A stretch of 64,000 nucleotides of DNA. Source: Bacteroidaceae bacterium. GTDB taxonomy: Bacteria; Bacteroidota; Bacteroidia; Bacteroidales; Bacteroidaceae. The DNA lies in the NCBI GenBank assembly GCA_045634305.1, contig JAZQZZ010000039.1, positions 3,818 to 67,817 on the forward strand. Reading direction: 5' to 3'. The notes beneath the pieces are model-generated. The model was given only the letters and a program-made list of their open reading frames with translations, searched no databases and was not told the DNA's origin. The position numbers were made by a program, and so were the translations under genes. Positions 17,723 to 56,115 of the stretch are shown piece by piece (within the stretch, counting starts at the first letter, position 1; each line of letters opens with the position of its first letter).

Positions 17723-17735
17723 AAAGAATCAATTA

Positions 17736-17788: not shown

Positions 17789-17793
17789 GTCAC

Positions 17794-17835: not shown

Positions 17836-17836
17836 A

Positions 17837-19561
17837 TTACCTCACAAACTCCACCTTGTGTAACGGTGCTCCATGGCGGTTGCGCACTGTAAGGGTGTAA
17901 CGTCCGGTTTCAAAACCCGACACATTGAATTCACGGCAATACCTGCCTGCATACACCTCGCGGCCATAGGTATCCTTTACAGCAATGCGTTGTCCCCACG
18001 AGCGTGGCTCGGGCAAAAGGATGACATCACCACGATGCATTCTGCCCCCGAATGCAGCCTGCACAAAAGCAGGCTCACTCTCCACACCGCAGGCATCCAC
18101 CGCAGTAACAGCCATTGTAATATTGTCGACACTGCGACAAGACCAGCGGAACAGCGTGTCATTCAGAGCTGTGGCAACAAGATTGTCAATGCGACAGATA
18201 TCGACTGTATCGCCTATAGCTGCATAGACATTATAATGTACAGTTGGAAAACCGGCGACAGGACGGACGGCATTCCACTTCAAGGAAACCCCACTTTCAT
18301 CACGCATGCAGCTTATTACCGACGGCGTCGACGGAGCATCGGCAATCCAATCCATCGGCGGCACAAGAGCGGGGGTATCATATATTTTTGTATAAATGTC
18401 GCGCACACCACCCGCATTGCCCAAAAGATGTGCCGTGCGGAACATCATGACACCGTTGGTGCCGGCACGGCGCGATGTGTGGAACTGTCTTTCAATCTCA
18501 ACCTGTGGCCAACCGCCATGCTCGGGCATCAGGCGATAGATACCTATTCCTGGCGCCACGTGACGGCCGTGGCGGTTCTCGCACCAGTCGAGCACGAAGG
18601 GATAGAAGTTGTTGCCATTGAAGTAGAGCATTGGGAAAAGGATATCCATGACACCATCATGCAACCACCCTTGAGCATCCTGATACACGGTGTTGTAGGC
18701 ATCCCATCCAAGCGAGCTGTAACGTGTGAGGTTGTCATACTTGCCAAGCGGCGCACAACTGACACGCACCCAAGGCTTCAGTTCCTTCACTGCCGAATAG
18801 ACCGATGTCACAATGCGGGTTATATTTGAACGGCGCCATGTTGCAAGTGACATGCGCCTGCCATGTCTCACAAAGAGTGAACCGTCGGGGTAACCCTCGA
18901 CACTATCAGGGTAACGTACATAATCGAGATGTATGCCGTCTACATCGTAGTTCCGAACTATCTCTTTGACAAGCGAAGCAATGTAGTCGGCCGTAGCAGG
19001 GTTGCCGGGTTCCATATACCATGCACCTTTGTAATGTGTACACAACGCTGAAGCCCTCCTTGGCAATGCACTCTTGCCCAGGCGCTTAACATACTCAACC
19101 TTGCCAAGCGGCATGGTAACCAGCCATGCGTGCAACTGCATGCCACGCTTGTGGCATTCATCAATGGCAAAGGCCAAGGGATCGTAGCCGGGTGATTTGC
19201 CGGTGATGCCGGTGAAGACATGCGAAAATGGTTCAATTGCCGATGGATATATGACATCGCCACGTACACGTGTCTGCAACAGCACGGTGTTGATGTGCAT
19301 GGCCCGTAAAGAATCAAGAATAACGGTGAGTTCCGCCTTCTGCTTTTCAACATCGGCCGGTGTCTTCACCTGCGAATGGGGCCAGTCAAGATTCTCTATT
19401 GTGGTGAGCCACACTGCACGGTATTCATATTTTGGCGAAGGGTGGCCCTTGCCATGATAATTCCCGATTTTGTATTCAAGTCCACTGTCATACACGCCAT
19501 TTTGCGCCACCGCAAAAAACGGCAGCAGCAGTAAAGTCATAAAACACAGCAACTTGTTCAT
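17837..19561 (-). CDS. Glycoside-hydrolase-like family 10 (YddW/DUF187-type) protein with T9SS-CTD-like tail
   Basis: Start chosen at the ATG at 19561 (MNKLLCFMTLLLLPFFAVAQ signal). Blocks YRAVWLTTIENLDWP and DVDGIHLDYVRYPD. The C-terminus RIAVKDTYGREVYAGRY...GRYTLTVRNRHGAPLHKVEFVR is sorting-domain-like. Confidence 0.6.
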   Translation of the reverse strand: MNKLLCFMTLLLLPFFAVAQNGVYDSGLEYKIGNYHGKGHPSPKYEYRAVWLTTIENLDWPHSQVKTPADVEKQKAELTVILDSLRAMHINTVLLQTRVRGDVIYPSAIEPFSHVFTGITGKSPGYDPLAFAIDECHKRGMQLHAWLVTMPLGKVEYVKRLGKSALPRRASALCTHYKGAWYMEPGNPATADYIASLVKEIVRNYDVDGIHLDYVRYPDSVEGYPDGSLFVRHGRRMSLATWRRSNITRIVTSVYSAVKELKPWVRVSCAPLGKYDNLTRYSSLGWDAYNTVYQDAQGWLHDGVMDILFPMLYFNGNNFYPFVLDWCENRHGRHVAPGIGIYRLMPEHGGWPQVEIERQFHTSRRAGTNGVMMFRTAHLLGNAGGVRDIYTKIYDTPALVPPMDWIADAPSTPSVISCMRDESGVSLKWNAVRPVAGFPTVHYNVYAAIGDTVDICRIDNLVATALNDTLFRWSCRSVDNITMAVTAVDACGVESEPAFVQAAFGGRMHRGDVILLPEPRSWGQRIAVKDTYGREVYAGRYCREFNVSGFETGRYTLTVRNRHGAPLHKVEFVR

Positions 19562-24408: not shown

Positions 24409-24540
24409 CAAGGACTATCTTGGCAGTATGCGCTCATTCCGCGATTCTCTACAATGGACCCGCTGGCCGAGAAGTACTATCACCTATCGCCCTACGCCTA
24501 CTGCGCCGGCGACCCGGTGAACCTTGTGGATCCGGACGGA
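24409..24540 (+). repeat. Rhs core-end homology block, copy 1
   Basis: The GC-richer 132 bp encode KDYLGSMRS (one frame) and DPLAEKYYHLSPYAYCAGDPVNLVDPDG (another frame). About 88% identical to 26466..26597. Confidence 0.75.
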
Positions 24541-24825
24541 ATGTGGTTTGTAAAGGTTAGCGCTTCGTCAAATAGGGGAAAAAATCCATATGCTTTATAT
24601 TCTGTTTATGATAGGCATGACAATTTGATATATAGAACTGTTGTAAAAGTTAGAGGAGCTAATGGCAGAGATAGAACTAAAACGAACTCAGATACCCCCA
24701 CTGGTAAATATCGAATTGTTGAATGGAGAAAAACTGGTAATGCAAATTATCCGATGAAATGGTGGCTTTTTGACATTAATAAATGTTATTCTAAAACAGT
24801 AATATTATGCATACTATTCTATTGA
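24454..24825 (+). CDS. Orphan Rhs-type C-terminal toxin tip (core-end motif plus about 95-aa variable domain), possibly truncated
   Basis: MDPLAEKYYHLSPYAYCAGDPVNLVDPDG is the canonical Rhs-associated core end (PxxxxDPxG). There is no upstream Rhs repeat body. The variable part contains TPTGKYRI. Confidence 0.6.
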   Translation: MDPLAEKYYHLSPYAYCAGDPVNLVDPDGMWFVKVSASSNRGKNPYALYSVYDRHDNLIYRTVVKVRGANGRDRTKTNSDTPTGKYRIVEWRKTGNANYPMKWWLFDINKCYSKTVILCILFY

Positions 24826-31293: not shown

Positions 31294-32262
31294 TCAAAAA
31301 GCGGACACGGCACGCACATTGTCGTCGCTGAACTTATTGCAGTCGATGGTGCCGCCATACTTCATACCGACATTCCACGCACAAAACTCTTTATTAGATT
31401 CCGTAGAAGACCATAAGAAACGTCCTAATGTTACAGCCTTAATTTTACTCAAGCTTTCATTTATTATATCACGCTTTTCGCATATGGACAGAAGCTCTTC
31501 TTTTGCCGGTAAATACCAACCTTCGCCTTTAGTAGCACACCAAGCAAAAGCAGGATAATTTGTTTCCCAATTGGATTGTTTTTTTATCTTGTTAAAGTTA
31601 CTCATTCCATCGTCATGGGATGTTGCATCAGTTTTTCTTTTATAAACATCCACTACTGCCCATGACAAGCCTTTACTCTCATCAAGGCTTACAATCTTTC
31701 CATGCTTGCCATCGGCAGTAACATCAAAGACTATGCCCTGTTTGCCGTTTTCATCATACAAGTCACCTATTTTATAGGTTTTCGAAGCAGTGTGAACATC
31801 AACCTTCTTGGTTGTCTTTCTTTCGTTATTCAGCAATGCTTCACCGATAAAAGATTCAGAACCATACCAATCCCCGATATTACGGAGCAGTTTGTCGTAC
31901 TGCATCGGGACTTTTATATCAATATAATCGACCGACCCGAAGAAGAAGAGGAACCAACCACGCAGTTTACCGCCATCAACAACCACCGGAACAATTTTCT
32001 TGCCAGTATTACGCGCATAGTCTATTTCTCTTCTTGCGAACTCCGATGCCATGGAATTGTCCGACAAGATAAACAGTACTGTATCTACTCTATCAATGGC
32101 ATTTATAATGACGTCGACAAACTGGTCGCCACTTTCAATACCATTCCAATCCACCCAGCAACGGGCATTCGTCTTTTCGTGGATATCATCGACCAAGCAC
32201 TTTACAACATCCATGTCGGCACGGCTGTAACTTACAAAAATGTCGTATTTTTCATTTCTCAT
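31294..32262 (-). CDS. TIR-domain protein fused to a DUF1566 (Lcl C-terminal-like) domain
   Basis: 322 aa. The N-terminus YDIFVSYSRADMDVV...ILSDNSMASEFARREIDYA is a classic bacterial TIR. The C-terminus GWYLPAKEELLSI...LWSSTES...AWNV...VRAVSAF matches DUF1566. Visibly AT-rich single-gene insertion. Confidence 0.75.
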   Translation of the reverse strand: MRNEKYDIFVSYSRADMDVVKCLVDDIHEKTNARCWVDWNGIESGDQFVDVIINAIDRVDTVLFILSDNSMASEFARREIDYARNTGKKIVPVVVDGGKLRGWFLFFFGSVDYIDIKVPMQYDKLLRNIGDWYGSESFIGEALLNNERKTTKKVDVHTASKTYKIGDLYDENGKQGIVFDVTADGKHGKIVSLDESKGLSWAVVDVYKRKTDATSHDDGMSNFNKIKKQSNWETNYPAFAWCATKGEGWYLPAKEELLSICEKRDIINESLSKIKAVTLGRFLWSSTESNKEFCAWNVGMKYGGTIDCNKFSDDNVRAVSAF

Positions 32263-42891: not shown

Positions 42892-43479
42892 ATGAACAAC
42901 ATCAGCGAAAAGCACCCGTTGGAGCCATTCCTGCCACAGAATGCAAGGATTCTGATGCTTGGCAGTTTCCCGCCGCCGCAAGCCAAATGGTCAATGCACT
43001 TCTTCTACCCTAACTGGATAAACGACATGTGGCGCGTGATGGGATTGCTGTTCTTCGGCGACAGACACCATTTTGAGCTGAAAGACGAAAAACGTTTCGA
43101 CAAAGAAGCTGTTGTGGAGTTCTGTACCCGGCAGGGAATAGCACTCTACGACACAGCGTGCGAGGTTGTGAGACTAAAGGAAAACGCATCCGACAAATTC
43201 CTTGAGATAAAGACAGCGACCGACATTGCAGCCCTGCTCACCAAACTGCCACAATGCACAGCCATTGTCACCACAGGGCAGAAAGCCACCGACACCATCG
43301 TGGAGAAATTTGGCTGCGTCACACCACTGATGGGCGACAGAACCACCCTGCACATTGCGGGACGCGAGTACAATTTCTGGCGCATGCCATCAACCTCCCG
43401 CGCCTATCCCCTCGCCCTAGAAAAGAAAGCCGCCCACTACCTCAAAATGCTAAAATTTGAAGGCATATCAAGCCTTTAA
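42892..43479 (+). CDS. Uracil-DNA glycosylase superfamily protein (family-6 / deoxyinosine glycosylase-like)
   Basis: 195 aa. The block RILMLGSFPPPQAKWSMHFFYPNWINDMWRVMG is typical of this UDG family. Confidence 0.6.
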   Translation: MNNISEKHPLEPFLPQNARILMLGSFPPPQAKWSMHFFYPNWINDMWRVMGLLFFGDRHHFELKDEKRFDKEAVVEFCTRQGIALYDTACEVVRLKENASDKFLEIKTATDIAALLTKLPQCTAIVTTGQKATDTIVEKFGCVTPLMGDRTTLHIAGREYNFWRMPSTSRAYPLALEKKAAHYLKMLKFEGISSL

Positions 43480-43530: not shown

Positions 43531-43628
43531 CGTATTGGCAATGTTGCACCCCGATATGCAAGGTTGCCAACATTTTGATTGTCAAACCATTAGAATCATT
43601 TCAAAGTATAAAAACATTATTTGATAAT

Positions 43629-44147
43629 ATGAGAAACTATTTCTACATCATTGCCATTTTGTCGCTTATGGTTTCATGTACATCCACTCTATCTGAACCA
43701 TCAAACAAGAAAGAATATATTGAGGATGCACGTAATTTCTACAATCAGGTAGAGGATAACAAGAACACCATCAATCACAAGCTTTGGAGCGAATATAAGA
43801 ACATGAATGATAAGATTATTGGAGAGTACTATCTTCGTTTCAGAGAAGAACTTGTAGCCAGGGAGATTGTATTCATTGGCAACCAGAACAAGAAATTCAA
43901 AAAATATTATTCTGACTACAAAACGCGATATGATTTGGTTGATGAATCTCTAAAAAACGATGGTGATTCAATCAAGATTGCAAGGAAAATTAAGAAATAC
44001 CATGAAAATGGGCAAGAAAATGAATTAACTCAATATCTTGAGGATGCCATTGCTTTGGGTGGCAAAACCAAGATTTATCCCAAAGCAATACTTTTTGACC
44101 TTGAAATTGACGAAGAATACAGCTACCTTTGGGGAGAAGAATGGTAA
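43629..44147 (+). CDS. Small lipoprotein, function unknown (operon gene 1)
   Basis: Start chosen at the ATG at 43629. MRNYFYIIAILSLMVSCTS is a lipoprotein signal with Cys. The remainder is Lys/Glu-rich and helical. The track ORF starts at a TTG at 43575. Confidence 0.55.
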   Translation: MRNYFYIIAILSLMVSCTSTLSEPSNKKEYIEDARNFYNQVEDNKNTINHKLWSEYKNMNDKIIGEYYLRFREELVAREIVFIGNQNKKFKKYYSDYKTRYDLVDESLKNDGDSIKIARKIKKYHENGQENELTQYLEDAIALGGKTKIYPKAILFDLEIDEEYSYLWGEEW

Positions 44148-44171: not shown

Positions 44172-45287
44172 ATGAATTATAAAGCTATTATCGCAATTCT
44201 GTCACTGTGCTTTGCTGCGCCCACAATAACTGTAAATGCGCAAGAGACGAACGACAAGCAGTTTTATGTCTATCTTTGGGATGTGACACTCTCTATGCTT
44301 GGTCCAGAAAGAGGAGGTGTAGAGGATGTCTGGGACAGCACCAAAGAGTGGCTGATAAACGAAATCAAGTCTAGAAAGACTAACCCTGGCGACACAATCG
44401 TCGTTTGCCCTTTCCAAGAGTGCATTATCAGTGGTGATACAGGTTTGAAAAGGATCGATGCAAAAACCGTCGTGCCAAGACCATACGTATCCGATGCAAC
44501 AGGTGAACCAATGACTTATGACTCCCCATGGAAATTTCCGGCAACTCCCAACGGCAAGCGCGAACTTATAAAGAAAATTGAATCGTTCGTGCAACCGCAT
44601 CACGGCAAAACGAACCTTTATGACCCATTAATGGATGCAAAAAGGGATTATGTCGACATGACCAAGCATAGTACAACCATATACATGCTTACAGATGGTA
44701 TAGATGATTTCAATGAGAATACAGACAAGTCATTCATCAAGGAAATAAATGAAAAATGGAGTAAAAGAGACCCGTTGCTTATCTATATCCGTTTAACAGA
44801 TGCTGCATGCGCCGACATAAAACCTAGTGACAATGTTGAGATAATCAATCCCAAAGAAAGGCTAATTGAAATTTCGGCAACAGTAGCCGGTAAATATAAT
44901 TTTATTGACGCTGTAAAAGAAAACAGAAAGACACAAACAATCAACATCAATCAGGTACAAAAAAACTATGAGCTACCTGAAGGCATAAAAATAAAAGTGA
45001 CATCAGACAATAATCCTTATGTCAAGATTGACGATGTATGCGAAGTCGTTGACGGAAAAATCGACGTCAAACTCAAATACAACCAACAGACTGTTGACGA
45101 AAACATATACAGCAACAGCACCATTGACCTGAACTTCAATGTTGTCAACGACAAGTTGATTAGCGATGATGGATATGTTTATATCATCTCTCTCTCAAAT
45201 ACAAGTTCAAAGACACTTGAGTTGGTAAACAAAGTTCAAAAGACTTTGAAAATCAAGCTTAGAAAAGCTGAACCCATTGAAGAATAA
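44172..45287 (+). CDS. Exported von Willebrand factor A (vWA) domain protein with MIDAS motif (operon gene 2)
   Basis: 371 aa with signal peptide MNYKAIIAILSLCFAAPTITVNAQ. MIDAS elements: FYVYLWDVTLSM (DxTxS, 44280..44294), HHGKTNLYDPL and TIYMLTDGIDD (Asp175 codon at 44694..44696). C-terminal beta-rich domain. Confidence 0.7.
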   Translation: MNYKAIIAILSLCFAAPTITVNAQETNDKQFYVYLWDVTLSMLGPERGGVEDVWDSTKEWLINEIKSRKTNPGDTIVVCPFQECIISGDTGLKRIDAKTVVPRPYVSDATGEPMTYDSPWKFPATPNGKRELIKKIESFVQPHHGKTNLYDPLMDAKRDYVDMTKHSTTIYMLTDGIDDFNENTDKSFIKEINEKWSKRDPLLIYIRLTDAACADIKPSDNVEIINPKERLIEISATVAGKYNFIDAVKENRKTQTININQVQKNYELPEGIKIKVTSDNNPYVKIDDVCEVVDGKIDVKLKYNQQTVDENIYSNSTIDLNFNVVNDKLISDDGYVYIISLSNTSSKTLELVNKVQKTLKIKLRKAEPIEE

Positions 45288-45302
45288 ATAAAAAAGATAA
45301 AA

Positions 45303-46208
45303 ATGAAAGCATTACTTCGTATTATACCACTTTTAGTGATAGCAATACTCGTTTCTTGTGGTCAGGACAAAGACAGGTATGCATTGTTCGGTGAGACCAA
45401 AGCCTATGAGTCATGGGGATGGCACGAATACACTCCCCAGAAAATGGAGCGTTATCTGGATCTTGAATGGAACGATGCCTGCAAGAATTGGCTCAAGGAC
45501 AAGCCAATTACAATAGCAGTGTATACCACTGATGATTATGGTGACGAGATTCCCGCAGAAGACGTAAAGATTTACAAGAACGATGTACTTTGTGAAGGAA
45601 ATAGTTTCACTGTCACCACAGATGAGACCGAAGTAAAATTCGCACTTGAGTTCAAGAAAAGTGCAAAGGACGGTGAACACATTTACTCTTTGAAATACAT
45701 ACCCGAAGGGGGAGAAACAGAGATTCTTGACGAGATTTCTTTCGAAAGTTTCGGTGATGACAACAAGATGATGGCCGACAAAGAGACCATTATGAACCCA
45801 TTGAAAGAAAAAGTCATATGGGCAACATGTATTTTCTTGACTGTTAGTATATTATGGTATATTCTGTCACGTTTTGTATTTTGGCGTAAAACACCATTCT
45901 CAAAGGTTACAATCACATACGAGAACGGTTCAGAAAGAACTATCAGAATGAAGGGTGGCAACAGCCTTGTATGTACAGCAAACACAAAGACCAAGGATTC
46001 TTTCTTTGCAAAGCTTTTCAAAGGAAGCAGACCATACGAATATCACGATTTCTGGACGTCACCGGTTACTATCGGCCGCGGCACAAGAAGCAACAGCATA
46101 TCGTTCACCGGAACAAGACGATATTCAATAAATGGTGAAAGGATACGACGTAGTCCAATTGAAATAATAAACGAGAACGGCGAAAAAGCTACAATACAAA
46201 CAACGTAA
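45303..46208 (+). CDS. Bitopic membrane protein: lipoprotein-type signal, about 150-aa outside domain, one TM, about 107-aa cytoplasmic tail (operon gene 3)
   Basis: 301 aa. MKALLRIIPLLVIAILVSCG signal. TM VIWATCIFLTVSILWYILSRFVFW (45813..45884). The tail contains PVTIGRGTRSNSISF...YSINGERI. Confidence 0.55.
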   Translation: MKALLRIIPLLVIAILVSCGQDKDRYALFGETKAYESWGWHEYTPQKMERYLDLEWNDACKNWLKDKPITIAVYTTDDYGDEIPAEDVKIYKNDVLCEGNSFTVTTDETEVKFALEFKKSAKDGEHIYSLKYIPEGGETEILDEISFESFGDDNKMMADKETIMNPLKEKVIWATCIFLTVSILWYILSRFVFWRKTPFSKVTITYENGSERTIRMKGGNSLVCTANTKTKDSFFAKLFKGSRPYEYHDFWTSPVTIGRGTRSNSISFTGTRRYSINGERIRRSPIEIINENGEKATIQTT

Positions 46209-46245
46209 TCAACAAAAAAATAATAACAACTTAATTCATTTAACT

Positions 46246-49179
46246 ATGGCAAGATTAGTTATAAGACCATCAATTTATATCGGCCTTGGCGGCACCGGTA
46301 TATTGGCGATTTCGCAGACAAAGAAAATGTACGAACAGGAGTTTGGTGAGGGCAATATCCCCAGACAGATTGCTTTCATTGCAATTGACTTTGACACAAC
46401 CGCTCCCAAAAATTCAAATCTGGCAACAGATATAAGCACAGATTTCATGCAAATACCTGATGGTATTGATCCATTGGGTTTCTATCAGGAAGGGCTGGAA
46501 CAGGGCGAGTACAAATGGATGTTCCCCTGCAACGCAGGCTACATCGCACGTAAGATTGTTGATGGTGCAAGCCAGGTAAGAACAACCGGCCGTTTGTATA
46601 CAGAGCTAATCTATTCACACATTGAAGCAAGAATCAGAAACAGCTTTAACAGAGTACAGAACATTGCAAACGAGACAACTGGTGGTGTCGTAGATGTACA
46701 CATGGCAATGTCTATTGCCGGTGGTACAGGTGCCGGTTCATTCATGACAGTTGCGCACATCATCAAGGAGGCATATCCAACGAATGTGAACCTTTATGGC
46801 TATGGTGTAAATTGGGGGGTATTCAGAGCGATGGACCCAAGCGGAAACAAGACACCACGTGTAATTTCAAATTCCTATGCCGCAATTATGGATATTGATT
46901 ACACAATGCATGCTACACCAGCAGAGCCCAAGAAATTGTCTCTCAATAATGAAGAGAAAACAATCAAGAGACCTATTTTTGACACATTCTATGTTATTGA
47001 CAACAAGACAAACCAGGGCGGTGTTGTAAACAGCGTGACAGAGTTGTGCGAAGTTGTTGGTACAAGCATGTATCTATCCGGAAATAAATTGGGTAACAAC
47101 ATTGCATCAATTGCAAGCAACGTTGGTTGGTCAAATGGCTCATATAATATAAAGAACAAGAAAGGTTGGGTACACGGTTTAGGTGCTTGTCAGGTAGTAT
47201 ATAAAGGCGATGAACTTGCAAAAGTATACAAATACAAAGTAGCAAAAGTTCTTATCCAGAAGTTGATTTCACAGGGATTTGAAATTGAGCAGGCTGCTAT
47301 CAACTGGACCATGCTGAGCGATGTAATGATTCGAGAGGATGGCGACCAGTTCAACTACCTCATTGATTCTATTTACCTTGGATCTGAAATCAATAGGCTG
47401 AAAGCTCCTCAGCTCGACATTAATGACACTGACGCCAAGACAAAGGACAATGCTGAAAAATACATCAATGACATGAGCGGCTTCACAAGCGAAGAGAAAA
47501 TCAAGGCTCGCAAAGTCGCTATTGAAGAAGCATTGAAAAAGGAAGTAGAGAAGTATCTTAAAGAAGAGAACGGAATTGGCAATGCAATCACATTCCTTAC
47601 CAAACTTACTTCACTTTGCGCACAATACAAGAATGAAATGCAGGATGAGTACCTTACCATTGACAAGAAAATAACCGATCTTCATAAAAAGCTCGAAGAG
47701 GGATACAAAGAGTATGAGGATAAGAGAAATGGATTTAAATGGAAATTCAGAAGTCTCGAGACAAAAGAAGCCATTCTTGAGGAGTGCATTACTGTAACAG
47801 CAAATACAATCCTTAAACAGAAATTCGAGGCACAGCGCCGCAGAGTAGCCGAGAGTATCTTCAATGAACTTATTGAGTTGATTAAGACATTGAAGACAGG
47901 TGTTGAAAACACAATGACAACACTTAACAACATTGCATTATCATACAGCAATGAATTGGAAAAACTTCAGAAGGACACAACATCTGCACGTCAGTTTGAG
48001 TACGACCTATCTCAAATAGAGCGCGTAAACATGACACTTACTGCTGAGGATGCGGCAAGTTTGCTCGTCAGCGACTTCGTTAGTACACTCAACAAATCCG
48101 TTTCTGAGTACTCACAACATGATTTGTCAGAAGCAATCCTTACATACACTGATACTCTTGAAAGAACAAAGAGATATCGCGAGACACTTGTACTTGATGT
48201 AATCGACAAGTTGAGTGAAGTGGAATGGGAGAATTTGATAGAGACAATCACATGCAAATCAGGTCTATTGCTTGACATTAACAACAAGGGTCAGAAGATT
48301 GCCGGTTCACCAGCAAACCAGAAGATGGTATCCAACTTCATGGTTGCATACTATGGCAAGGACAACGCAACCCTTACGCGTTTCCAGAAAGACCCGGCAT
48401 TCATGCACAATATATTGAACAAACATTGGGTTTCAATGGATACCGACATCATGAGACAGAGGGTAATCTTCTACCGAGTTGATGGTGCTATTATCCCTTA
48501 CTGTCTGAATGAGTTCCCTGATCATGTAATCGAATCCGGCTACAACAAGGATGTACGCAACAAGCATACATTCAACCCACACTACGATAGCACCATCTTT
48601 GATTGGATGCAAGCCAATGACTTCAAGTTGAAACCAGAAATGTCTAACGAGGCTATGTTCTATTGGGTATGCGGTCACATCTTCGGTTGGGACGATATCA
48701 CAGAAACAGAGAGAATCATGGAAAAGGATGAACGCGGTGTTGTTGTCAAAGAGATAGACAAAGAGAACAAGCCTCATAGAAAGTTTATCAGTTGCCAGAA
48801 GGGAAGCTACTTCTATTGGGATGAAGAGACAATGTCACGTCCAGGCACAAAGAAGTGGGTTCCACTTGAAGAAGCTGGAACAAAACGTCGTGATACAGCG
48901 TTCAACTACTTCAAGACACGAGTTCTCCCCGAGAAGAAGGACCTATTCTATTCACTTATCAAGAGTGAAGTCAGCAGTAAGGGTATCAGCTACTATCAGG
49001 GTATTATTGATGGCATCGTAAGTCGCGGCATTGATGACTATATCAACCAGCTCGTATGTTCAGACAAGAGCAGCATCACATACTCTCAAAAGGGCAACGG
49101 TGGTGAGTTGCAAGCTATCATGGCTGAATTTGAATATTTGAGCAGAGATTTGAAGAACACATTGAGCAATCTTAATTAA
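46246..49179 (+). CDS. Tubulin/FtsZ-superfamily GTPase-like protein with long C-terminal extension (operon gene 4)
   Basis: 977 aa with no signal or TM. IGLGGTG (46279..46299). AGGTGAGS (46717..46740) matches the tubulin signature [SAG]GGTG[SA]G. DGASQVRTTGR lies between them. The C-terminal roughly 600 aa are coiled-coil-rich and unassigned. Confidence 0.7.
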   Translation: MARLVIRPSIYIGLGGTGILAISQTKKMYEQEFGEGNIPRQIAFIAIDFDTTAPKNSNLATDISTDFMQIPDGIDPLGFYQEGLEQGEYKWMFPCNAGYIARKIVDGASQVRTTGRLYTELIYSHIEARIRNSFNRVQNIANETTGGVVDVHMAMSIAGGTGAGSFMTVAHIIKEAYPTNVNLYGYGVNWGVFRAMDPSGNKTPRVISNSYAAIMDIDYTMHATPAEPKKLSLNNEEKTIKRPIFDTFYVIDNKTNQGGVVNSVTELCEVVGTSMYLSGNKLGNNIASIASNVGWSNGSYNIKNKKGWVHGLGACQVVYKGDELAKVYKYKVAKVLIQKLISQGFEIEQAAINWTMLSDVMIREDGDQFNYLIDSIYLGSEINRLKAPQLDINDTDAKTKDNAEKYINDMSGFTSEEKIKARKVAIEEALKKEVEKYLKEENGIGNAITFLTKLTSLCAQYKNEMQDEYLTIDKKITDLHKKLEEGYKEYEDKRNGFKWKFRSLETKEAILEECITVTANTILKQKFEAQRRRVAESIFNELIELIKTLKTGVENTMTTLNNIALSYSNELEKLQKDTTSARQFEYDLSQIERVNMTLTAEDAASLLVSDFVSTLNKSVSEYSQHDLSEAILTYTDTLERTKRYRETLVLDVIDKLSEVEWENLIETITCKSGLLLDINNKGQKIAGSPANQKMVSNFMVAYYGKDNATLTRFQKDPAFMHNILNKHWVSMDTDIMRQRVIFYRVDGAIIPYCLNEFPDHVIESGYNKDVRNKHTFNPHYDSTIFDWMQANDFKLKPEMSNEAMFYWVCGHIFGWDDITETERIMEKDERGVVVKEIDKENKPHRKFISCQKGSYFYWDEETMSRPGTKKWVPLEEAGTKRRDTAFNYFKTRVLPEKKDLFYSLIKSEVSSKGISYYQGIIDGIVSRGIDDYINQLVCSDKSSITYSQKGNGGELQAIMAEFEYLSRDLKNTLSNLN

Positions 49180-49187
49180 TTGACAAA

Positions 49188-52100
49188 ATGAACTATTGCG
49201 TACATTTCTTCGTTGGTAAGGAATTTGAGACATTATTGGAAGGCATTGCATACGACCTTCTCAAAAACGACCTTTCGGCACTTAAATTCAACAAGTATTA
49301 CTTAATTGAATCAGGAGTAGATGGTCATTTGAATTATCGCGAACTAAAAGTTTGTGTTAAAGACAGTAAAGAAGAAGGAAACGTTGAATTCACAACAATA
49401 GATTGTCTTAACAACAATATTGCCTTATCCTGGGCTAACGTTGAACAGGGCAATAGTAATGATAAAGAGAATTTGTTTACTGGTATTTTCGACAGTGTAC
49501 TTACTGTCGAAAATGCCAGAAAACAAAGCTTGCTCAACACTTTTATATACTTCCCATTATACAAGGAAGAAAGCATCGGCCTAGTAGGCAACCTGTGCAA
49601 AAATATCACGACTTCCTCAAAAAGTAATCTGACAGAAGTTACATTCATTACATTTGGTGATGACATGTGCAAGGTTATTGAAGAGGATTACAAGACAAAG
49701 CCTACAACAACCAAAAACCTTGACAAATTTGACAAGATTCGCAATGAATTGGGTCTCGTTGAACAGAAAAGCCACCTTGTATTCATGCACGACAGTACCA
49801 CTAGCGGTTTGGCGCTTGGTATGGACAAGGCCAAGTTTACAGACATGTTGGCACAGCTTGCAATTCTGATGTCAACATCGTACAAGGAGATTTTCCCAAT
49901 GATAAACAGCGAGGCAGAGGCTACATGTATCGGTTTCTCTTCGCTTTACTTCAGTGAATATCTATTCATCAATTACCTTGTCAATAAGGCAACACTCGCT
50001 GCAATAGACAGTGCATCGGTAAATGACGAAAAGATAGATATAAACAAGACATTCCAGACAACTAATGAAATGTTGAGAAGACGAGACAACATTCTCTCAA
50101 CATTCCTCAACAAGCACAAGACCGATTGTGCAGAAGGTAGCCACAAGGAAATAGCAGAGGAGATAGAAGACATCCTGAAATCAGTTTCTGCCAAATTCCA
50201 GGAGACAAAGAATATGACAGAAAAAGCAGCTATACTTGCAGCACTGCTTTCAAAAACCGATTATGAATTGTTTGCAAACGCTGTATACAATTCAGAAAAC
50301 ATCAACCTCAGTGACTTGTACAACGAGGCTATCGAATTCTTCATCACAGAGGACGTTGCAAAATTCTATAAGGAGGGGGAAGATGAACTTATCAACCCAT
50401 TAAAGGAGTTGAAAATCATTAATCAGAAAATTCTTAACTCATCGAGCCAGATACGCGAACTTGAAAAGAGTTCTTCAGAACTTGAAAAACTCATCGACGA
50501 GAGTGGCAAAGCACAGGAGTGTTTTGTAAGCAATGAGATTACCATTGACGACAAAAAATTCCGTTTGCTTCCATCTGTTGAAGAAGAACCCCTACAGGAA
50601 TGCTACGAAGAACATGAAGTAAGCATTGAGAGTATCGACTTGAGAGGAAACTTCAGCCCAATAAAGAGCCAGGGACAGCAGGGCTCATGCGTTGCGTTCA
50701 CATTGACATCTATTTTTGAATATATGATGAAAGTGAGCAAGCAGGAAGATTGCGACCTCAGCGAAGCCTTCCTGTATTACAACGCCAGACATCTTGACCA
50801 GGCAGATGACGTGAGCACACAAGAGGATAGCGGTTCACGCTACAAACCATCGATGGATTCTCTTGTCAAATATGGTATCGCCCTGGAAAAAGTGTGGCCA
50901 TACCATGAGGAGATATATACACAAAAGCCATCGAACGAAGCATACGAAGATGCAGGCAAGAGAAAACTCAGAAAAGCATTGAGCGTAAAGCTTAATTCAG
51001 ACGCAATAAAATCGGCATTGTCAGACGGCTACCCTGTTGCAGGTAGTTTTGCATTGTTCCCCAGCTTTTTTGAAGCCGGAGCATATATCCCCATACCTTC
51101 ACAGGAGGAGATTGAGCAAACAAAGGCAAATGCCAACAACCCCGAGAAGCAACTAAAGCATGGACATCACGCCATGGCCATTGTAGGTTTCAGCGACCAG
51201 TTGAACATGTTCCTTGTCCGTAACTCATGGGGCGAGGATTGGGGTGATAAAGGATATTGCTACATACCATATGCTTATATCAACAATCCCGAGCTATTCA
51301 CTTTTGCTGCTATTATTACAGAAGTGGATTCCCTTGAGACAAAGATGCCCGAGCTGCGTGAAATTCCCGCACTCAAGATTGACAGTGACGATATTCTTAT
51401 CCGTTTCTATATTACAAAGGCTGCGCTTGACAACGAAAGACGTGCACTATGCTTGTACAAGAAACAGAGGGATGAATGGCAGGCATATTTCGAGGCTTTG
51501 AAAATAAAATATGCAAATTCCAATGACAATAGAAGATTCGTCAATGCTAACACTGAATTCCACAACAATGAAATTGTTAGGTTGGAGAATGAAAACAAAG
51601 AGGCAGAAACCAGACTCGAAGGTATAAAGAAAGAGCTTAACAAATCTAATTTGATAGCCATCATCAAAATGATAGCTTTTGTTGTTCTGACATTCGTTGG
51701 CGGAATAGCTATTAACAAATGGCTGGTTAGTATACATAACAATGCAAAGGACAAACTGCTCAGCGCAATCAGTAATGACAATTATGGTGGTTTCGCAGAA
51801 AAGGTTGTAAAATTCCTTGACGCTGAAAACGGTGGTACAATCCAATTGAGCTGGTGGGTAATGATACTCATTTCTGCTGTTATAATCGGATTTATCATCT
51901 ATAGGCAAAGTTCAAAATGGAAGGTCTGGAGAGAAGAACGCGATACATTGTATGTAAAGATTGAGAGAAACGAAAAAGAGATTGCCACAAGAAAGAGCAC
52001 AATAAAGACACTGAAATTCTCGGCATTCGCAGCATGGACAGTAATAACAAACCTTACAACCATGCAAGAGAAATTGCTGAAGATGTACAACAGTATCATA

Positions 52101-52691
52101 TCACTGATAAACAATTTGAGAGTTTGGTACAAGGAAGTTGAACAGAACAACAATAAGATTAGCCTTGCTTCAACATTCTCTAACATATCACTCTTATCAG
52201 AGGATATTCTTGACAACTATTTCAACAACACTTTAAAGAATACTGGTGAATGCGATGTTGACCTATGTGAAGAGATTGACAAGTTTGCAATTGACGCAGA
52301 ATTCCTTGCAAACTTTAAGCAACAGCTACGCAATAAGATCATCACTAAGTTACAGGAACATCTGGAACGTAAGGAGTTCTCTGTAACAGAGCATATGGTC
52401 AAGAATACATATAGCGACATCGCCATAAAGGTCGACTATGATATAATAAGCGATTTACAAAGGAACTCGAACCTATTTGCATACGTTGAAACTTTGAAAC
52501 AAGATGCAAAGGCAGCCATTGCACCAGACTTAGAGAACTACAGACACGATGTGTTGGACAAATTAGCACCAGGCACCACATTGTTAGAGTCAACAAACAA
52601 ATACCGAATGCAAGTCGTAAATGTACGCCTTCTCAAGTACAGCGAGATTGTTGCCTTCAGAGGAGCTACTGTAAGCGGCAAAAAGAAATGA
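49188..52691 (+). CDS. Membrane-anchored papain-family (C1) cysteine protease with large N- and C-terminal unknown domains (operon gene 5)
   Basis: 1167 aa. IDLRGNFSPIKSQGQQGSCVAFT (Gln495, Cys501 codon at 50688..50690). KHGHHAMAIVGF (His661 at 51168..51170). LVRNSWGEDWGDKGYCYIPY (Asn679 at 51222..51224). TM hairpin LIAIIKMIAFVVLTFVGGIAI / LSWWVMILISAVIIGFIIY (about 51649..51903). No signal peptide. Confidence 0.8.
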   Translation: MNYCVHFFVGKEFETLLEGIAYDLLKNDLSALKFNKYYLIESGVDGHLNYRELKVCVKDSKEEGNVEFTTIDCLNNNIALSWANVEQGNSNDKENLFTGIFDSVLTVENARKQSLLNTFIYFPLYKEESIGLVGNLCKNITTSSKSNLTEVTFITFGDDMCKVIEEDYKTKPTTTKNLDKFDKIRNELGLVEQKSHLVFMHDSTTSGLALGMDKAKFTDMLAQLAILMSTSYKEIFPMINSEAEATCIGFSSLYFSEYLFINYLVNKATLAAIDSASVNDEKIDINKTFQTTNEMLRRRDNILSTFLNKHKTDCAEGSHKEIAEEIEDILKSVSAKFQETKNMTEKAAILAALLSKTDYELFANAVYNSENINLSDLYNEAIEFFITEDVAKFYKEGEDELINPLKELKIINQKILNSSSQIRELEKSSSELEKLIDESGKAQECFVSNEITIDDKKFRLLPSVEEEPLQECYEEHEVSIESIDLRGNFSPIKSQGQQGSCVAFTLTSIFEYMMKVSKQEDCDLSEAFLYYNARHLDQADDVSTQEDSGSRYKPSMDSLVKYGIALEKVWPYHEEIYTQKPSNEAYEDAGKRKLRKALSVKLNSDAIKSALSDGYPVAGSFALFPSFFEAGAYIPIPSQEEIEQTKANANNPEKQLKHGHHAMAIVGFSDQLNMFLVRNSWGEDWGDKGYCYIPYAYINNPELFTFAAIITEVDSLETKMPELREIPALKIDSDDILIRFYITKAALDNERRALCLYKKQRDEWQAYFEALKIKYANSNDNRRFVNANTEFHNNEIVRLENENKEAETRLEGIKKELNKSNLIAIIKMIAFVVLTFVGGIAINKWLVSIHNNAKDKLLSAISNDNYGGFAEKVVKFLDAENGGTIQLSWWVMILISAVIIGFIIYRQSSKWKVWREERDTLYVKIERNEKEIATRKSTIKTLKFSAFAAWTVITNLTTMQEKLLKMYNSIISLINNLRVWYKEVEQNNNKISLASTFSNISLLSEDILDNYFNNTLKNTGECDVDLCEEIDKFAIDAEFLANFKQQLRNKIITKLQEHLERKEFSVTEHMVKNTYSDIAIKVDYDIISDLQRNSNLFAYVETLKQDAKAAIAPDLENYRHDVLDKLAPGTTLLESTNKYRMQVVNVRLLKYSEIVAFRGATVSGKKK

Positions 52692-52745
52692 GAAAGTATA
52701 AATAAATGCGCAATGTTTGCAAACTGATAGGCGCAACAACATCAC

Positions 52746-52776
52746 GGGACCGGCTTTATAAAGCCGGTCCCCTTTT
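52746..52776 (+). terminator. Rho-independent terminator of the five-gene operon
   Basis: gggaccggcttt-at-aaagccggtccc followed by ctttt. Confidence 0.7.
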
Positions 52777-52825
52777 GTTATAGGCAAAAAACCGTAAACG
52801 AGTCACATATTCAATAAAATAATAA

Positions 52826-52833
52826 TATATTTG
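52826..52833 (+). promoter_or_regulatory. Bacteroidetes -7 box (TATATTTG) for 52879..53721
   Basis: TAnnTTTG match 46 nt upstream of the ATG. Confidence 0.4.
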
Positions 52834-52878
52834 CGCAAGGATAGAAATTTTAGACTGAACGCATAAACACAAGCACAT

Positions 52879-53721
52879 ATGTCACTATTCAATTGGTTAA
52901 AAGGACTTTTTAGTGGAAAGTCGATAAAAGGGAGCAACTCTACGAGCACAAAGACTATAACTCCGCAGCCAAAGGAGCGCAATATTACGCCATCACACCA
53001 TGCAAGGCACAAGGAGTACAACGCCGGTTCGGCAAAACGTCTGTCGGGGAGCATATATGTGCTTGCGGTATTTGCCGGTGACGGGCATTGGAGCAGAGCC
53101 GGGAAGGAGAAGTTGCTTAACGAGCTGTACAAGGCCGAAAAATGGATAAGGAAAGAGGCTGCACGCTATGGCAAGAGCGTGAGTTTCAAACATGGGACAT
53201 ACGGTCTCGACAAGACCATCAACGTGCATGTTGCTCCGGGACATGGTACCGGCAACGAGGATTGCCGTGTCGCGCACAAGGTTCTCGGTGCTGCAGGATA
53301 CAAGAGCATTGGGCAGTTCTATGAGTGGTTCAGGAAGAACGAGCAGTGCGACAATTGCCTGGTCATAGTCTTTGCACAGGGACGGGGACGTTCATATGCC
53401 GTACCCTACACTCCTGAATATAACGCGGACTATTTTACCGAGAGTTGTATAATCTACGAGGCTTACGAGGATGGCACGCCGCAAATTGCCTTTGGCATGG
53501 CACACGAGATGCTCCACTGCTTTGGTGCCGAAGACTTGTACGAAACGTTCGAAAAGCCACAGATTGTTGAGCAGGAGGCAAAGAAACGTTATGGCAACGA
53601 CGTGATGCACAGGTTCGACTATGAACTCGACAACCTTAAGATTGACGAGTTCACAGCATGGTGTGTGGGACTTACCGATACATGGAAGGATGAGTTCAAC
53701 ATTTTCCTGAAGAAGAAATGA
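52879..53721 (+). CDS. Putative cytoplasmic zinc metalloprotease (HExxH...GAEDxY)
   Basis: 280 aa with no signal peptide. Motif FGMAHEMLHCFGAEDLY (HEMLH = 53503..53517), reminiscent of the HExxHxxGxxDEY layout of M64-like zincins. It has its own promoter box, and its composition resembles the core genome. Confidence 0.5.
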   Translation: MSLFNWLKGLFSGKSIKGSNSTSTKTITPQPKERNITPSHHARHKEYNAGSAKRLSGSIYVLAVFAGDGHWSRAGKEKLLNELYKAEKWIRKEAARYGKSVSFKHGTYGLDKTINVHVAPGHGTGNEDCRVAHKVLGAAGYKSIGQFYEWFRKNEQCDNCLVIVFAQGRGRSYAVPYTPEYNADYFTESCIIYEAYEDGTPQIAFGMAHEMLHCFGAEDLYETFEKPQIVEQEAKKRYGNDVMHRFDYELDNLKIDEFTAWCVGLTDTWKDEFNIFLKKK

Positions 53722-53853: not shown

Positions 53854-54156
53854 ATGACCGAGCAAGACAGAAATGCAATGACAACTTTTGAGGAGAAGCT
53901 CCACCGCCTTGTGTATGAGCACAAGCAGCTGAAGGAGCAGAACCGTGAGTTGTTGCGCACAATTGAGGAGAAGGACAATTCCCTCATTGAACTGCAAAAG
54001 CACTGTGACGCACTCGAGAGCAATTACAACAACCTTAAGCAAGCCAAGATAATAAGCCTTAGCGATAACGGAATAGAGAACGCAAAGGAGAGAATATCGA
54101 GGCTGGTGCGTGAAATCGACCGATGCATTGAGTCGCTAAAGAAACAGCCGGAATAA
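53854..54156 (+). CDS. Small coiled-coil protein (ZapB-like position upstream of zapA)
   Basis: About 100 aa from the ATG at 53854. Heptad-rich sequence LVYEHKQLKEQNRELLRTIEEKDNSLIELQ. Function inferred only from position. Confidence 0.45.
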   Translation: MTEQDRNAMTTFEEKLHRLVYEHKQLKEQNRELLRTIEEKDNSLIELQKHCDALESNYNNLKQAKIISLSDNGIENAKERISRLVREIDRCIESLKKQPE

Positions 54157-54163: not shown

Positions 54164-54454
54164 ATGGAAGATAGAGAACTGGGAATAAACCTTATAATAG
54201 ATGGTACATCGTACCCGCTGACAATAAAGGCTAGCGATGAGCCTTCGTACAGGCAAGCCGCAAGAATTGTCAACGATACGCTGTCAAGATATAAAGACCT
54301 CTTTTCGGGCGAAGGTGGCGTGAGAGTGATGACAATGGTCGCACTCGACATTGCCTATCACGCCGTGAGCGGTTCAAATGGGGTTACATCGGACGAGGTG
54401 AGACGTAAGATTGCCGAGCTCACACGTCTGGTAGATGACTCCCTGAAGGCATAA
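54164..54454 (+). CDS. zapA: Cell division protein ZapA
   Basis: 96 aa. INLIIDGTSYPLTIKASDEPSYRQAARIVNDTL is ZapA-like. It has the conserved position before rny in Bacteroidetes. Confidence 0.7.
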   Translation: MEDRELGINLIIDGTSYPLTIKASDEPSYRQAARIVNDTLSRYKDLFSGEGGVRVMTMVALDIAYHAVSGSNGVTSDEVRRKIAELTRLVDDSLKA

Positions 54455-54573: not shown

Positions 54574-56115
54574 ATGAATGTTACAACATTAATCATCGGA
54601 CTGGCAGTCGGATTGGCAATAGGCTTCCTGGTCCAACTTTTGATAAACAAGACCGCCTTGAAGGCTAAACACCAGCGCATCATTGACGACGCACACAAAG
54701 AGGCCGAGGTAATCAAAAAGAACAAATTGCTTGAGGTCAAGGAGAAGTTCCTCAACAAGAAGGCAGAACTTGAGAAGGAGATTTCGCAGCGCAACAACAA
54801 GATACAGCAAGCCGAGCACCAGCTCAAGCAGCGCGAGATACAATACAATCAGCGCAACGAGGACCTGCAGCGCCGCAAGAACGAGCTCGACACAGTAAAG
54901 GAGAACCTTGAGGCACAGCGTGCCGTACTTGAGCGCCGCCAGGAGGAACTTGACAAGATGCACGCACAGGAGCGCGAGAAGCTTGAGGCTATCAGCGGTC
55001 TGTCGGCCGACGAGGCAAAGGAGCGCCTCATCGAGTCACTAAAGGAGGAGGCAAAGAGCGAAGCTGCATCATACATCAACGACATCATTGACGATGCGAA
55101 GATGACCGCCAACAAGGAGGCAAAGAAGATTGTGATACAGACCATCCAGCGCGTGGCAACAGAAACAGCAATAGAGAACTCGGTGACCGTGTTCCACATT
55201 GACAGCGATGAGATGAAGGGCCGCATCATTGGCCGCGAGGGACGCAACATCCGCGCATTGGAGGCTGCTACCGGTGTTGAGATTGTTGTCGACGACACCC
55301 CCGAGGCTATCGTGCTGAGCGCATTCGACCCTGTTCGCCGCGAGATTGCACGCCTTGCTTTACACCAACTTGTTGCCGACGGCCGCATACACCCTGCACG
55401 CATTGAGGAGGTTGTTGCCAAGGTGAAGAAACAGATCGAGGAGGAAATTATCGAAACAGGTAAGCGAACCACCATAGACCTGGGTATTCACGGCATGCAT
55501 CCCGAGCTCATCCGCATCATAGGTAAGATGAAGTACCGTTCATCATATGGCCAGAACCTGTTGCAGCACGCACGTGAGACAGCAAACCTCTGTGCCGTTA
55601 TGGCTGCCGAGCTTGGCCTCAACCCCAAGAAGGCTAAACGCGCCGGCTTGCTGCACGATATCGGTAAGGTACCCGATGAAGAGACCGAATTGCCACATGC
55701 AGAGTATGGTATGAAGATTGCCGAGAAGTACAAGGAGAAACCCGATATCTGCAATGCCATCGGTGCTCACCACGACGAGGTAGAGATGACAAGCCTCATC
55801 GCCCCAATCGTACAGGTATGCGACGCCATCTCGGGCGCACGTCCCGGCGCTCGCCGCGAGATTGTAGAGGCATACATAAAGCGTCTGCACGACCTTGAGC
55901 AGCTTGCAATGTCATACCCGGGCGTAACAAAGACATATGCCATCCAGGCCGGTCGCGAGCTGCGTGTGATTGTCGGTGCCGACAAGATCGACGACAAGCA
56001 GACCGAGCTTCTCTCTGGCGAGATTGCAAAGAAGATTCAGGACGAGATGACATATCCCGGCCAGGTGAAGATTACCGTCATCCGCGAGACACGTGCAGTG
56101 AACTACGCACGATAA
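54574..56115 (+). CDS. rny: Ribonuclease Y
   Basis: 513 aa with an N-terminal TM, a coiled coil, KH block [19 protein letters not shown] and HD block GLLHDIGK. Confidence 0.92.

Follow-up and report, generated by a model that had tools for sequence, protein, structure and literature searches.

The 64,000-nucleotide (nt) stretch of Bacteroidaceae DNA analysed here (contig JAZQZZ010000039.1; hereafter the window) encodes, at positions 46246-49179, a protein of 977 amino acids (aa) that is, judged from profile matches and a predicted structure, a true and very divergent member of the FtsZl1 (Tubulin_2) family within the tubulin/FtsZ superfamily. Its gene lies in a four-gene cassette, together with genes for a secreted von Willebrand factor A (vWA) protein, a lipoprotein with one transmembrane (TM) helix and a papain-family cysteine protease. 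The odds are about even (a probability of roughly 0.5) that these four proteins make up an envelope-spanning switch in which GTP-dependent assembly of FtsZl1 would control the protease, probably in the service of defence or some other biological conflict.

The FtsZl1 family was defined computationally in 2010 as a set of proteins of about 1000 aa in which a GTPase-like domain is combined with a coiled coil and a domain at the C-terminus (Makarova and Koonin, Biol Direct 5:33, PMC2875224), and the Pfam family Tubulin_2 (PF13809) has been equated with it (PMC9871819). Members were reported from many bacterial phyla and some archaea, always alongside a normal FtsZ, and their usual operon partners are a vWA protein and membrane proteins, a gene context from which a role in membrane remodelling was proposed (PMC2875224). 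The T6-H7 region could not be aligned in FtsZl1, and filaments were thought to form perhaps by a new mechanism or not at all (PMC2875224). Additional file 5 of the same paper lists, for Bacteroides caccae ATCC 43185, the proteins BACCAC_02056 (535 aa) and BACCAC_02057 (FtsZl1, 913 aa) and, adjoining the latter, BACCAC_02058, a cysteine protease of 1152 aa (COG4870), so that the pairing of FtsZl1 with a protease was already on record, though undiscussed. Both the family and the protease pairing were thus known computationally, and the window protein adds a member. What is new here is the anatomy and topology of the four-gene cassette, its deep conservation, its mobile and defence-adjacent behaviour, and a lead on a pseudo-tubulin domain in the protease.

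The FtsZl1 protein

The preliminary description of this region, made from the sequence alone, had picked out three motifs in the 977-aa reading frame, and all three (IGLGGTG, DGASQVRTTGR and AGGTGAG) were recovered at the positions it gave. The last of them matches the classical tubulin signature [SAG]GGTG[SA]G. When the whole window is translated in six frames, this signature turns up once (nt 46717), whereas its composition predicts about 0.0013 occurrences. Among 36 homologues with 40-92% identity, five residues of the T1 loop (G13, G15, G16, T17 and G18), five of the T3-like segment (G107, R112, T113, G115 and R116) and four of the T4 loop (G159, G160, G162 and G164) are invariant in every sequence. 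The motifs are thus real and no product of chance.

Placement in the FtsZl1 family, also proposed in the preliminary description, is borne out by Pfam. PF13809 matches with E 1.9e-50 and 172.5 bits, where the cut-off is 27; the match takes in profile positions 1-355 of 356, and it is the only Pfam domain above threshold in the protein. The general tubulin/FtsZ profile PF00091, with 20.9 bits, stays under its cut-off of 33 and matches residues 137-180 alone, around the T4 loop; the Pfam scan detected no FtsZ_C domain. When aligned with canonical Bacteroidales FtsZ by hhalign, the family shares 23 columns, solely around T4. Homologues of the protein at E <= 1e-5 number 232, and PF13809 was found in all 120 of the matches listed. 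Scans of NCBIfam and PADLOC returned no match to the protein, and the C-terminal 640 residues matched nothing in Pfam, NCBIfam or the PDB sequences.

An AlphaFold2 (AF2) model was built from the 36-sequence alignment, with a mean predicted local distance difference test score (pLDDT) of 85 and a predicted template-modelling score (pTM) of 0.68. It has an alpha/beta domain to about residue 345, followed by helices at 416-438, 443-494 and 504-576, which have pLDDT values above 90 and form a coiled-coil stalk. The stalk sequence itself yields just weak noise of the coiled-coil type (TIGR04523 and apolipoprotein A-I). Beyond the stalk, the predicted alpha/beta C-terminal region carries many invariant residues, including P751, Y752, C753, H779, D781, W807, G810 and C938. 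The preliminary description had anticipated a GTPase-like region followed by coiled-coil and unassigned sequence, and the Pfam boundaries (residues 10-337), the modelled stalk and the unmatched last 640 residues agree with this layout, as they do with the 2010 definition of the family.

The tubulin fold itself is supported by a structural search with Foldseek. The best 50 matches in the PDB are without exception FtsZ, alpha-, beta- or gamma-tubulin, CetZ or TubZ, each with a probability of 1.00, with 326-370 aligned columns and 11-18% identity. In the viral library BFVD, phage FtsZ was the only match with E <= 0.001; phage tubulin and PhuZ came out with weaker E-values, interspersed with unrelated matches. 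When the PDB was searched with a profile of the full-length alignment, only coiled-coil noise of the apolipoprotein type came back, and hence no solved structure for the FtsZl1 branch is detectable by sequence.

The reach of the family was gauged by a search of 1.84 billion representative proteins, in which the count of clusters fell from 1260 at E <= 1e-3 to 407 at E <= 1e-10 and to 154 at E <= 1e-30. Three size classes can be told apart: proteins of about 975 aa match the query along its full length, those of about 915-945 aa (the class of the B. caccae protein) match residues 6-815 at 25-30% identity, and those of about 790 aa match residues 5-800. Since the shorter relatives match only to about residue 800-815, the segment from roughly 815 to 977 is specific to the subgroup of about 975 aa. 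Table 1 collects the coordinates of the protein, its partners and the adjoining genes.

Table 1. Features of the cassette and of the genes that follow it (window coordinates)
Feature	Position	Strand	Basis
Small predicted lipoprotein, 190 aa (TTG start) or 172 aa (ATG at 43629)	43575-44147	+	Hydrophobic N-terminus with LMVSC
Secreted vWA-domain protein, 371 aa, beta-rich C-terminal region	44172-45287	+	Metal ion-dependent adhesion site (MIDAS), profile matches
Lipoprotein with one TM helix, 301 aa	45303-46208	+	Lipobox, hydropathy
FtsZl1/Tubulin_2 protein, 977 aa, ATG start	46246-49179	+	Open reading frame and translation, PF13809
Tubulin/FtsZ-like GTPase domain, residues 10-337	46273-47256	+	Pfam, invariant residues, Foldseek
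T1-like loop IGLGGTG, residues 12-18	46279-46299	+	
T3-like segment DGASQVRTTGR, residues 106-116	46561-46593	+	
T4 signature AGGTGAG, residues 158-164	46717-46737	+	
Helical/coiled-coil stalk, about residues 416-576	47491-47973	+	DSSP assignment of AF2 model
C-terminal alpha/beta region, about residues 585-977	47998-49176	+	AF2 secondary structure; without known family
Membrane-anchored papain-family cysteine protease (predicted), 1167 aa	49188-52691	+	PF00112, AF2, Foldseek
Protease N-terminal alpha/beta domain, residues 1-300	49188-50087	+	No family; candidate degenerate tubulin-like domain
Papain-like catalytic domain, about residues 482-713 (Cys501 codon 50688-50690)	50631-51326	+	
Two-helix membrane hairpin, residues 822-847 and 887-905	51651-51902	+	Hydropathy scan
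Intrinsic-terminator-like hairpin	52746-52771	+	11-bp stem with 8 G-C pairs, then CTTTTGTTAT
zapB-like coiled-coil gene	53854-54156	+	
zapA	54164-54454	+	PF05164, E 5e-12
RNase Y gene (rny)	54574-56115	+	

The protease and the envelope partners

The protease gene begins 8 nt past the FtsZl1 stop codon. As the preliminary description had supposed, a protease is indeed encoded downstream, and it belongs to Peptidase_C1: PF00112 matches residues 482-694 with E 2.8e-16 (60.7 bits against a cut-off of 20.7), and Q495, C501, H661, N679 and W681 are invariant both in a set of 12 homologues and in one of 34. The AF2 model (pLDDT 82) resembles xylellain, with a TM-score of 0.76, and cathepsins K, L and S, over a TM-score range of 0.7-0.79. 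On sequence and model together, the partner is a papain-family C1 protease with a complete catalytic set and predicted activity. A conserved segment just ahead of the catalytic domain, residues 443-481, may, as a conjecture, play the part of a propeptide. Both segments of the hydropathy-predicted hairpin sit within very long modelled helices (778-862 and 889-990), and the protein has no N-terminal signal sequence. This combination of a two-helix hairpin and no signal sequence suggests that the N-terminal, catalytic and C-terminal domains are all cytoplasmic and tethered to the inner membrane.

The first 300 or so residues of the protease deserve separate mention. One idea, tentative and on balance somewhat unlikely, is that they form a degenerate FtsZl1 domain, which would make the cassette a protease gated by a tubulin filament. 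The domain is alpha/beta and lacks the T1 and T4 glycine loops. With hhalign, its match to the A1-derived FtsZl1 profile was not significant (E 0.09; 3 of 60 column shuffles reached the score), other settings with the same trimmed alignments gave E 0.11, and a broader profile of 121 FtsZl1 sequences gave E 0.22, again not significant. Both FtsZl1 template profiles nevertheless produced the same alignment register, in which the protease segments VFIHFPLYK, FVGYxxDMxxxIEP, IxIQNRTxxG and GIGFSSLYF lie opposite the FtsZl1 segments VDIHxAMSLAGGTGAG, LYGYGVxxxVFRTMDP, YVIDNxTENG and GLGACQVVY, respectively. When the DSSP strings of the two independent models are laid along this sequence-only alignment, 62% of positions agree, a share that drops to 25-40% once the strings are shifted by at least 7 residues, and the order of strands and helices is near-identical from residue 109 on. 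The hhalign and DSSP agreement may fit a tubulin-like domain that has shed its glycine loops and might assemble together with FtsZl1, but the evidence is insufficient. Aligned at full length with hhalign, the protease and FtsZl1 families showed no match in the N-domain; one weak match (probability 6%) fell between helical regions and was disregarded. A word-indexed search with the N-domain profile for intermediates bearing PF13809 returned one fragment only and was uninformative, and in the Foldseek search with the whole protease model the papain domain accounted for all of the best 50 matches listed. If the idea were right, a GTP-dependent FtsZl1 filament at the inner membrane would have the protease as a built-in component or as its cap. 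The cassette would in that case run from an extracytoplasmic vWA sensor through polymerisation of a cytoskeletal type to activation of a proteolytic effector, a bacterial immune or stress switch with a tubulin-fold polymer, comparable to the STAND or TIR filaments of other systems.

Upstream of FtsZl1, the 371-aa protein is, by its sequence, a secreted vWA protein with an intact MIDAS. A hydropathy scan shows a hydrophobic segment of the signal type at its N-terminus, and the MIDAS pattern is invariant in 15 homologues (D37 and S41 in WDVTLS, T147, and T174-D175-G176 in LTDG). PF00092 matches weakly in 6 of the 15 family members. A PDB profile search returned vWA domains in six of seven matches (PTMP1, three TRAP chains, sporozoite surface protein 2 and ITIH1), and a faint precomputed VWA match is on record for the Alistipes homologues. 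The 301-aa lipoprotein, whose gene always lies between those for the vWA protein and FtsZl1, has a lipobox cysteine (Cys19) that is invariant in 21 homologues and a TM helix at residues 171-193. Its hydropathy profile suggests a periplasmic N-domain and a cytoplasmic C-domain, the latter conserved and beta-rich; Pfam, PADLOC and NCBIfam contain no family that matches it. As the preliminary description had noted, zapA lies elsewhere. That description had not recognised that FtsZl1 is preceded, within one transcription unit, by partners typical of the family, namely the vWA protein, which is divergent, and the lipoprotein.

A small lipoprotein gene 24 nt 5' of the vWA gene is an optional fifth member of the cassette. 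Homologues in the same position were found only in loci L004, L005 and L027, and Pfam, PADLOC and NCBIfam again gave no family match. In the Alistipes-type loci L032 (7054-8076), L033 and L034, the place directly 5' of the vWA gene is taken by genes for a DUF6565 protein and a small PqiA-like membrane protein. As this pair occupies the position of the small lipoprotein, the 5' end of the cassette seems to be a variable accessory slot. Just upstream of the cassette in the window, a gene for a 195-aa protein (42892-43479, + strand) matches hypoxanthine-DNA glycosylase (TIGR04274) below threshold, with 43.9 bits where 80 are required; L004 alone has kept it.

Conservation and genomic setting of the cassette

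The window proteins were compared by tblastn and blastp with 29 loci (one genome plus metagenomes) and with the gene tables of further contigs, and every locus with enough flanking sequence had the order vWA, lipoprotein-TM, FtsZl1, C1 protease. It holds also in loci L020-L025, where FtsZl1 identity is only 22-28%. A search of genome contigs with a single protein as query gave only one close locus, L004. The closest genome locus is that of a Bacteroidaceae metagenome-assembled genome, JAZREN010000008.1, with 90% protein identity, and the taxonomic breadth of the cassette is based on metagenome loci and protein searches. Within the window, the gaps between cassette genes measure 8-37 nt, and the terminator-like hairpin downstream of the protease gene is the sole site of its kind on the + strand between 42800 and 53900. 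The four genes are probably co-transcribed, with this hairpin closing the unit. A sigma-70 promoter scan was uninformative (35 sites found, 27 expected), the consensus not being valid for promoters of Bacteroidota.

The protein libraries recognise little of the cassette: PADLOC, NCBIfam and Pfam together identify only Tubulin_2 and Peptidase_C1. A Walker A motif is absent from all four conserved proteins, and the only sequence to match it, AIALGGKT, is C-terminal in the optional small lipoprotein and unlikely to be a genuine P-loop. No GTPase or FN3 domain in the cassette matched Pfam or NCBIfam, although very divergent versions are possible.

The sites occupied by the cassette are diverse. 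It lies between the leu operon and prmA in L002, between serS and corA in L030, in a mobile or defence region with HTH_17, DUF3876 and ATPase genes in L001, near AbiE in L035 and L036, and 5' of a reverse transcriptase in L032-L034. PADLOC recognises AbiEi/AbiEii beside the cassette in L009 (immediately upstream) and L035, PDC-M62A/B in L001 and the DRT reverse transcriptase UG26 in L032, with further copies of UG26 and AbiEii in related loci. Counted this way, defence genes lie within 10 kb of the cassette in about four of eight independent contexts, a figure that has no matched background and is hence no more than suggestive.

The window, L004 and L009 share one site, 5' of the zapB-like gene, zapA and rny. 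Here a direct comparison can be made between window positions 44172-52691 and L009:1679-10164, in which the flanks are 79-94% identical and the cassette proteins only 28-38%. Such a contrast points either to very fast evolution of the cassette or to exchange of alleles at a hotspot. L004, which is 87% identical to the window in DNA and collinear on both sides, carries at 16581-18972 an extra gene of 2.4 kb. The corresponding place in the window is 52692-52878, where only about 24 nt stand in for the gene. The gene encodes a 790-aa Tubulin_2 paralogue that is 34% identical to the 977-aa protein (PF13809, E 7.7e-41) and lacks its last 180 or so residues, and the same paralogue is found 3' of the cassette in L009 and L011. 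Next to this site in the window, at 52879-53721 (+ strand), lies a gene for a 280-aa protein with the HExxH-type motif HEMLH and no family match; its homologue in L004 (70% identity) is directly 3' of the 790-aa paralogue, and L009 retains only fragments. Judging from these sequences, the paralogue and the HExxH protein could be a second tubulin-like/protease pair, in which a metalloprotease would replace the papain-like enzyme, and the presence in the window of the HExxH gene without its Tubulin_2 partner could then be read as a loss.

The context of the cassette is chromosomal. On plasmids, matches were confined to the N-domain and came from FtsZl1 proteins of Meiothermus, Thermus and Azospirillum megaplasmids. 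A tblastn search of a phage database gave one marginal match, at 22% identity over 28% of the FtsZl1 query. This match (MT836542.1, 6931-7773, to residues 5-276, E 3e-6) lies in a 9.8-kb unannotated contig from human faeces named 'Bacteriophage sp.'.

Two other genes of the window may be of a defence or toxin-immunity type. Twelve kb 5' of the cassette, at 31294-32262 on the - strand, a 322-aa protein combines an N-terminal TIR domain (TIR_2, E 7e-19; weak ThsB-like matches in PADLOC) with a C-terminal domain of the Lcl_C type, and its gene may be a stand-alone defence-type gene. Farther away, a 123-aa reading frame (24454-24825, + strand) without a Pfam match begins with MDPLAEKYYHLSPYAYCAGDPVNLVDPDGM and ends in a short variable tail, followed by small reading frames. 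Its start presumably resembles the end of an Rhs/YD-repeat core, and the frame may belong to an orphan toxin-immunity module.

A proposed switch, its rivals and related systems

The preliminary description had suggested that FtsZl1 acts as a polymerising switch or scaffold for the downstream protease. Strict conservation of the gene pair is in keeping with this, and the functional part of the suggestion stands as conjecture. In the scheme put forward here, the periplasmic vWA/MIDAS protein would bind a ligand or sense a perturbation of the envelope, and the single-pass lipoprotein would pass the signal into the cytoplasm. FtsZl1 would answer by GTP-dependent self-assembly, with the coiled-coil stalk and the C-terminal domain providing contacts, and the assembly would cluster or unlock the membrane-tethered protease, which could then cleave cytoplasmic or membrane targets. 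The output would be a response of the conflict or abortive-infection type rather than housekeeping shaping of membranes. Behaviour of the conflict type is suggested by the unrelated insertion sites, the contrast in identity between flanks and cassette, the defence neighbours and the presence or absence of the paralogue. It is suggested also by an independent classification, in which neighbourhoods of tubulin and vWA genes in Firmicutes and Actinobacteria are parts of GTPase-centred conflict systems (Kaur et al. 2020, eLife 9:e52696, PMC7159879).

Several points weigh against this proposal. The TM-scores from Foldseek reach only modest values on the target (0.31-0.49), and the root-mean-square deviations are high. 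No aspartate or glutamate is invariant in residues 279-308, after the presumed core helix at 264-278; position 281 is lysine here and in the closest relatives, and aspartate or glutamate in most homologues. With no invariant acidic residue, and with T6-H7 unalignable in the 2010 analysis as well, filament-coupled hydrolysis is uncertain, and GTP binding, hydrolysis and self-assembly are all predicted properties. The contacts among the four proteins are presumed ones, and the membrane topology of the cassette comes from hydropathy. As to the setting, the count of defence neighbours suffers from its missing background and from several loci that are not independent, searches of IMG/VR viral contigs and of Bacteroidota plasmids turned up no copy of the cassette, and PADLOC-DB v2 returned no family for seven proteins at E <= 0.01.

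The proposed switch has to be weighed against other accounts of the same genes. FtsZ and tubulin relatives generally work by polymerisation, and anchored FtsZl1 polymers might bend or constrict the inner membrane, for example to form vesicles, with the protease processing or recycling components. Such a remodelling machine is what Makarova and Koonin proposed for the family from gene context, and the cassette is indeed rich in membrane-associated proteins (the lipoprotein-TM, the protease with its TM hairpin and the secreted vWA protein). Pfam and NCBIfam detect in it no ESCRT-III, dynamin, BAR-like or OmpA-type component, however, and the partner that is conserved so strictly looks like an active protease, not like a protein that shapes membranes. 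A patchy distribution, insertion at unrelated places and a divergence this extreme where the site is shared would also be unusual for housekeeping morphogenesis. A cassette that is mobile, patchy, fast-diverging and defence-adjacent favours a conflict or defence output over remodelling, which we regard as unlikely though still in contention. Of similarly low probability, and likewise in contention, is a tubulin fold that serves, without filaments, as a GTP/GDP conformational switch or dimeriser regulating the protease. The modest TM-scores would suit such a switch, as would the want of an invariant acidic residue where the T7 loop would lie, but the Foldseek alignments of 326-370 columns span about the length of both FtsZ subdomains, and the long stalk and large conserved C-terminal domain suggest higher-order assembly.

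Two further accounts carry far less weight. Position beside the zapB-like gene, zapA and rny could point to an accessory cell-division protein: the cassette lies 1.2-1.5 kb 5' of zapA in the window, L004 and L009, and in L030 it is 4 kb from a canonical ftsA-ftsZ pair. Yet a terminator and a separate gene intervene before zapA, and the adjacency is probably positional rather than functional, as it is kept in these three related genomes and not elsewhere. The cassette also occurs at leu/prmA, in the mobile or defence region of L001 and near AbiE or DRT genes in L032-L036, and it is missing from most genomes that bear FtsZ, as the 1260 clusters out of 1.84 billion proteins attest. With no FtsZ_C domain and PF00091 below threshold, and above all with so many unrelated sites, a division role is very improbable and was rejected. 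Glycine-rich loops that follow a beta strand occur in Rossmann folds too, and the GGTGAG loop might in principle belong to a Rossmann-type dinucleotide-binding fold, the refuting case that the preliminary description had named. Only the T4 loop aligns with canonical FtsZ by sequence, which would be in line with such a fold, but the full-length match to PF13809, the uniform identity of the best 50 structural matches, and the invariance of the T1, T3-like and T4 elements in the order and spacing of the superfamily refute it as far as prediction can, and it is scarcely credible.

Within the tubulin/FtsZ superfamily no branch is more divergent than FtsZl1, and this one query alone picks up about 1260 clusters (at 50% identity). 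Full-text literature searches found no experimental study of FtsZl1, with the exception of a Synechocystis interactome paper that names a Tubulin_2 protein, and after 15 years neither a solved structure nor biochemistry nor a phenotype is on record for the family. The Bacteroidales cassette is a good experimental entry point because it is compact, with four genes, a clear predicted topology and an enzyme active site that can be mutated. It allows one to ask whether a tubulin-fold GTPase can be a signal-controlled assembly switch for an effector, and whether FtsZl1 systems are defence modules or machines for membrane remodelling. The hosts are gut Bacteroidales, in which phage defence is of current interest.

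Among known systems, FtsZ and the window protein have the same fold in the GTPase domain and, in common, a T4 signature of the GGTG type. The window protein differs in its sub-threshold match to PF00091, its lack of FtsZ_C and of a C-terminal peptide for binding FtsA or ZipA, and its 640 or so extra residues; in the segment where T7 would presumably lie, no conserved acidic residue was identified. Its gene stands outside the dcw cluster, and one cassette-bearing genome has a real FtsZ as well. TubZ and PhuZ are likewise divergent prokaryotic members of the superfamily that act outside division, and both TubZ (4ei7) and PhuZ appear among the structural matches. The preliminary description had remarked on the lack of a TubR/tubC-like partner such as TubZ has, and the neighbours are indeed the vWA protein, the lipoprotein and the protease; unlike those of TubZ and PhuZ, the window gene is chromosomal, and its product is much larger and coupled to a protease.

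The B. caccae FtsZl1 and the family at large share with the window protein an operon with vWA and membrane proteins and a coexisting canonical FtsZ, and in Bacteroides the gene for a large cysteine protease likewise lies immediately 3'. Compared with the B. caccae size class, the 977-aa protein has about 160 extra conserved residues (roughly 815-977), and the prediction for its C-terminal region is a mixed alpha/beta structure, where the family definition has a mostly alpha-helical one. The window cassette is also without the protein kinase, P-loop GTPase and OmpA partners of the family, and two upstream proteins, the vWA protein of 371 aa and the lipoprotein of 301 aa, stand in the place of the single 535-aa protein of B. 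caccae. The protease partner is like xylellain and other bacterial C1A proteases in its catalytic Gln, Cys, His and Asn. Xylellain (3ois) is its best structural match, with 25% identity over 281 columns, longer than the matches to mature cathepsins. Unlike xylellain, the partner carries its protease domain inside an 1167-aa protein with a 440-residue N-terminal region, a helical stalk, the TM hairpin and a C-terminal domain.

The GAP1-N2 systems described by Kaur et al. share with the cassette a tubulin-family protein fused to a C-terminal coiled-coil or alpha-helical domain and vWA proteins encoded alongside, one of them extracytoplasmic. Their tubulins have been read as mediating nucleoside triphosphate-dependent, threshold-setting assembly in biological conflict (PMC7159879). 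These systems belong to Firmicutes and Actinobacteria and are centred on a TRAFAC GTPase of the GAP1-N2 type and on proteins with fibronectin type III (FNIII) repeats. In the window cassette, by contrast, no P-loop, GTPase or FNIII domain was found, and the fixed partner of the tubulin-family protein is a papain-family protease.

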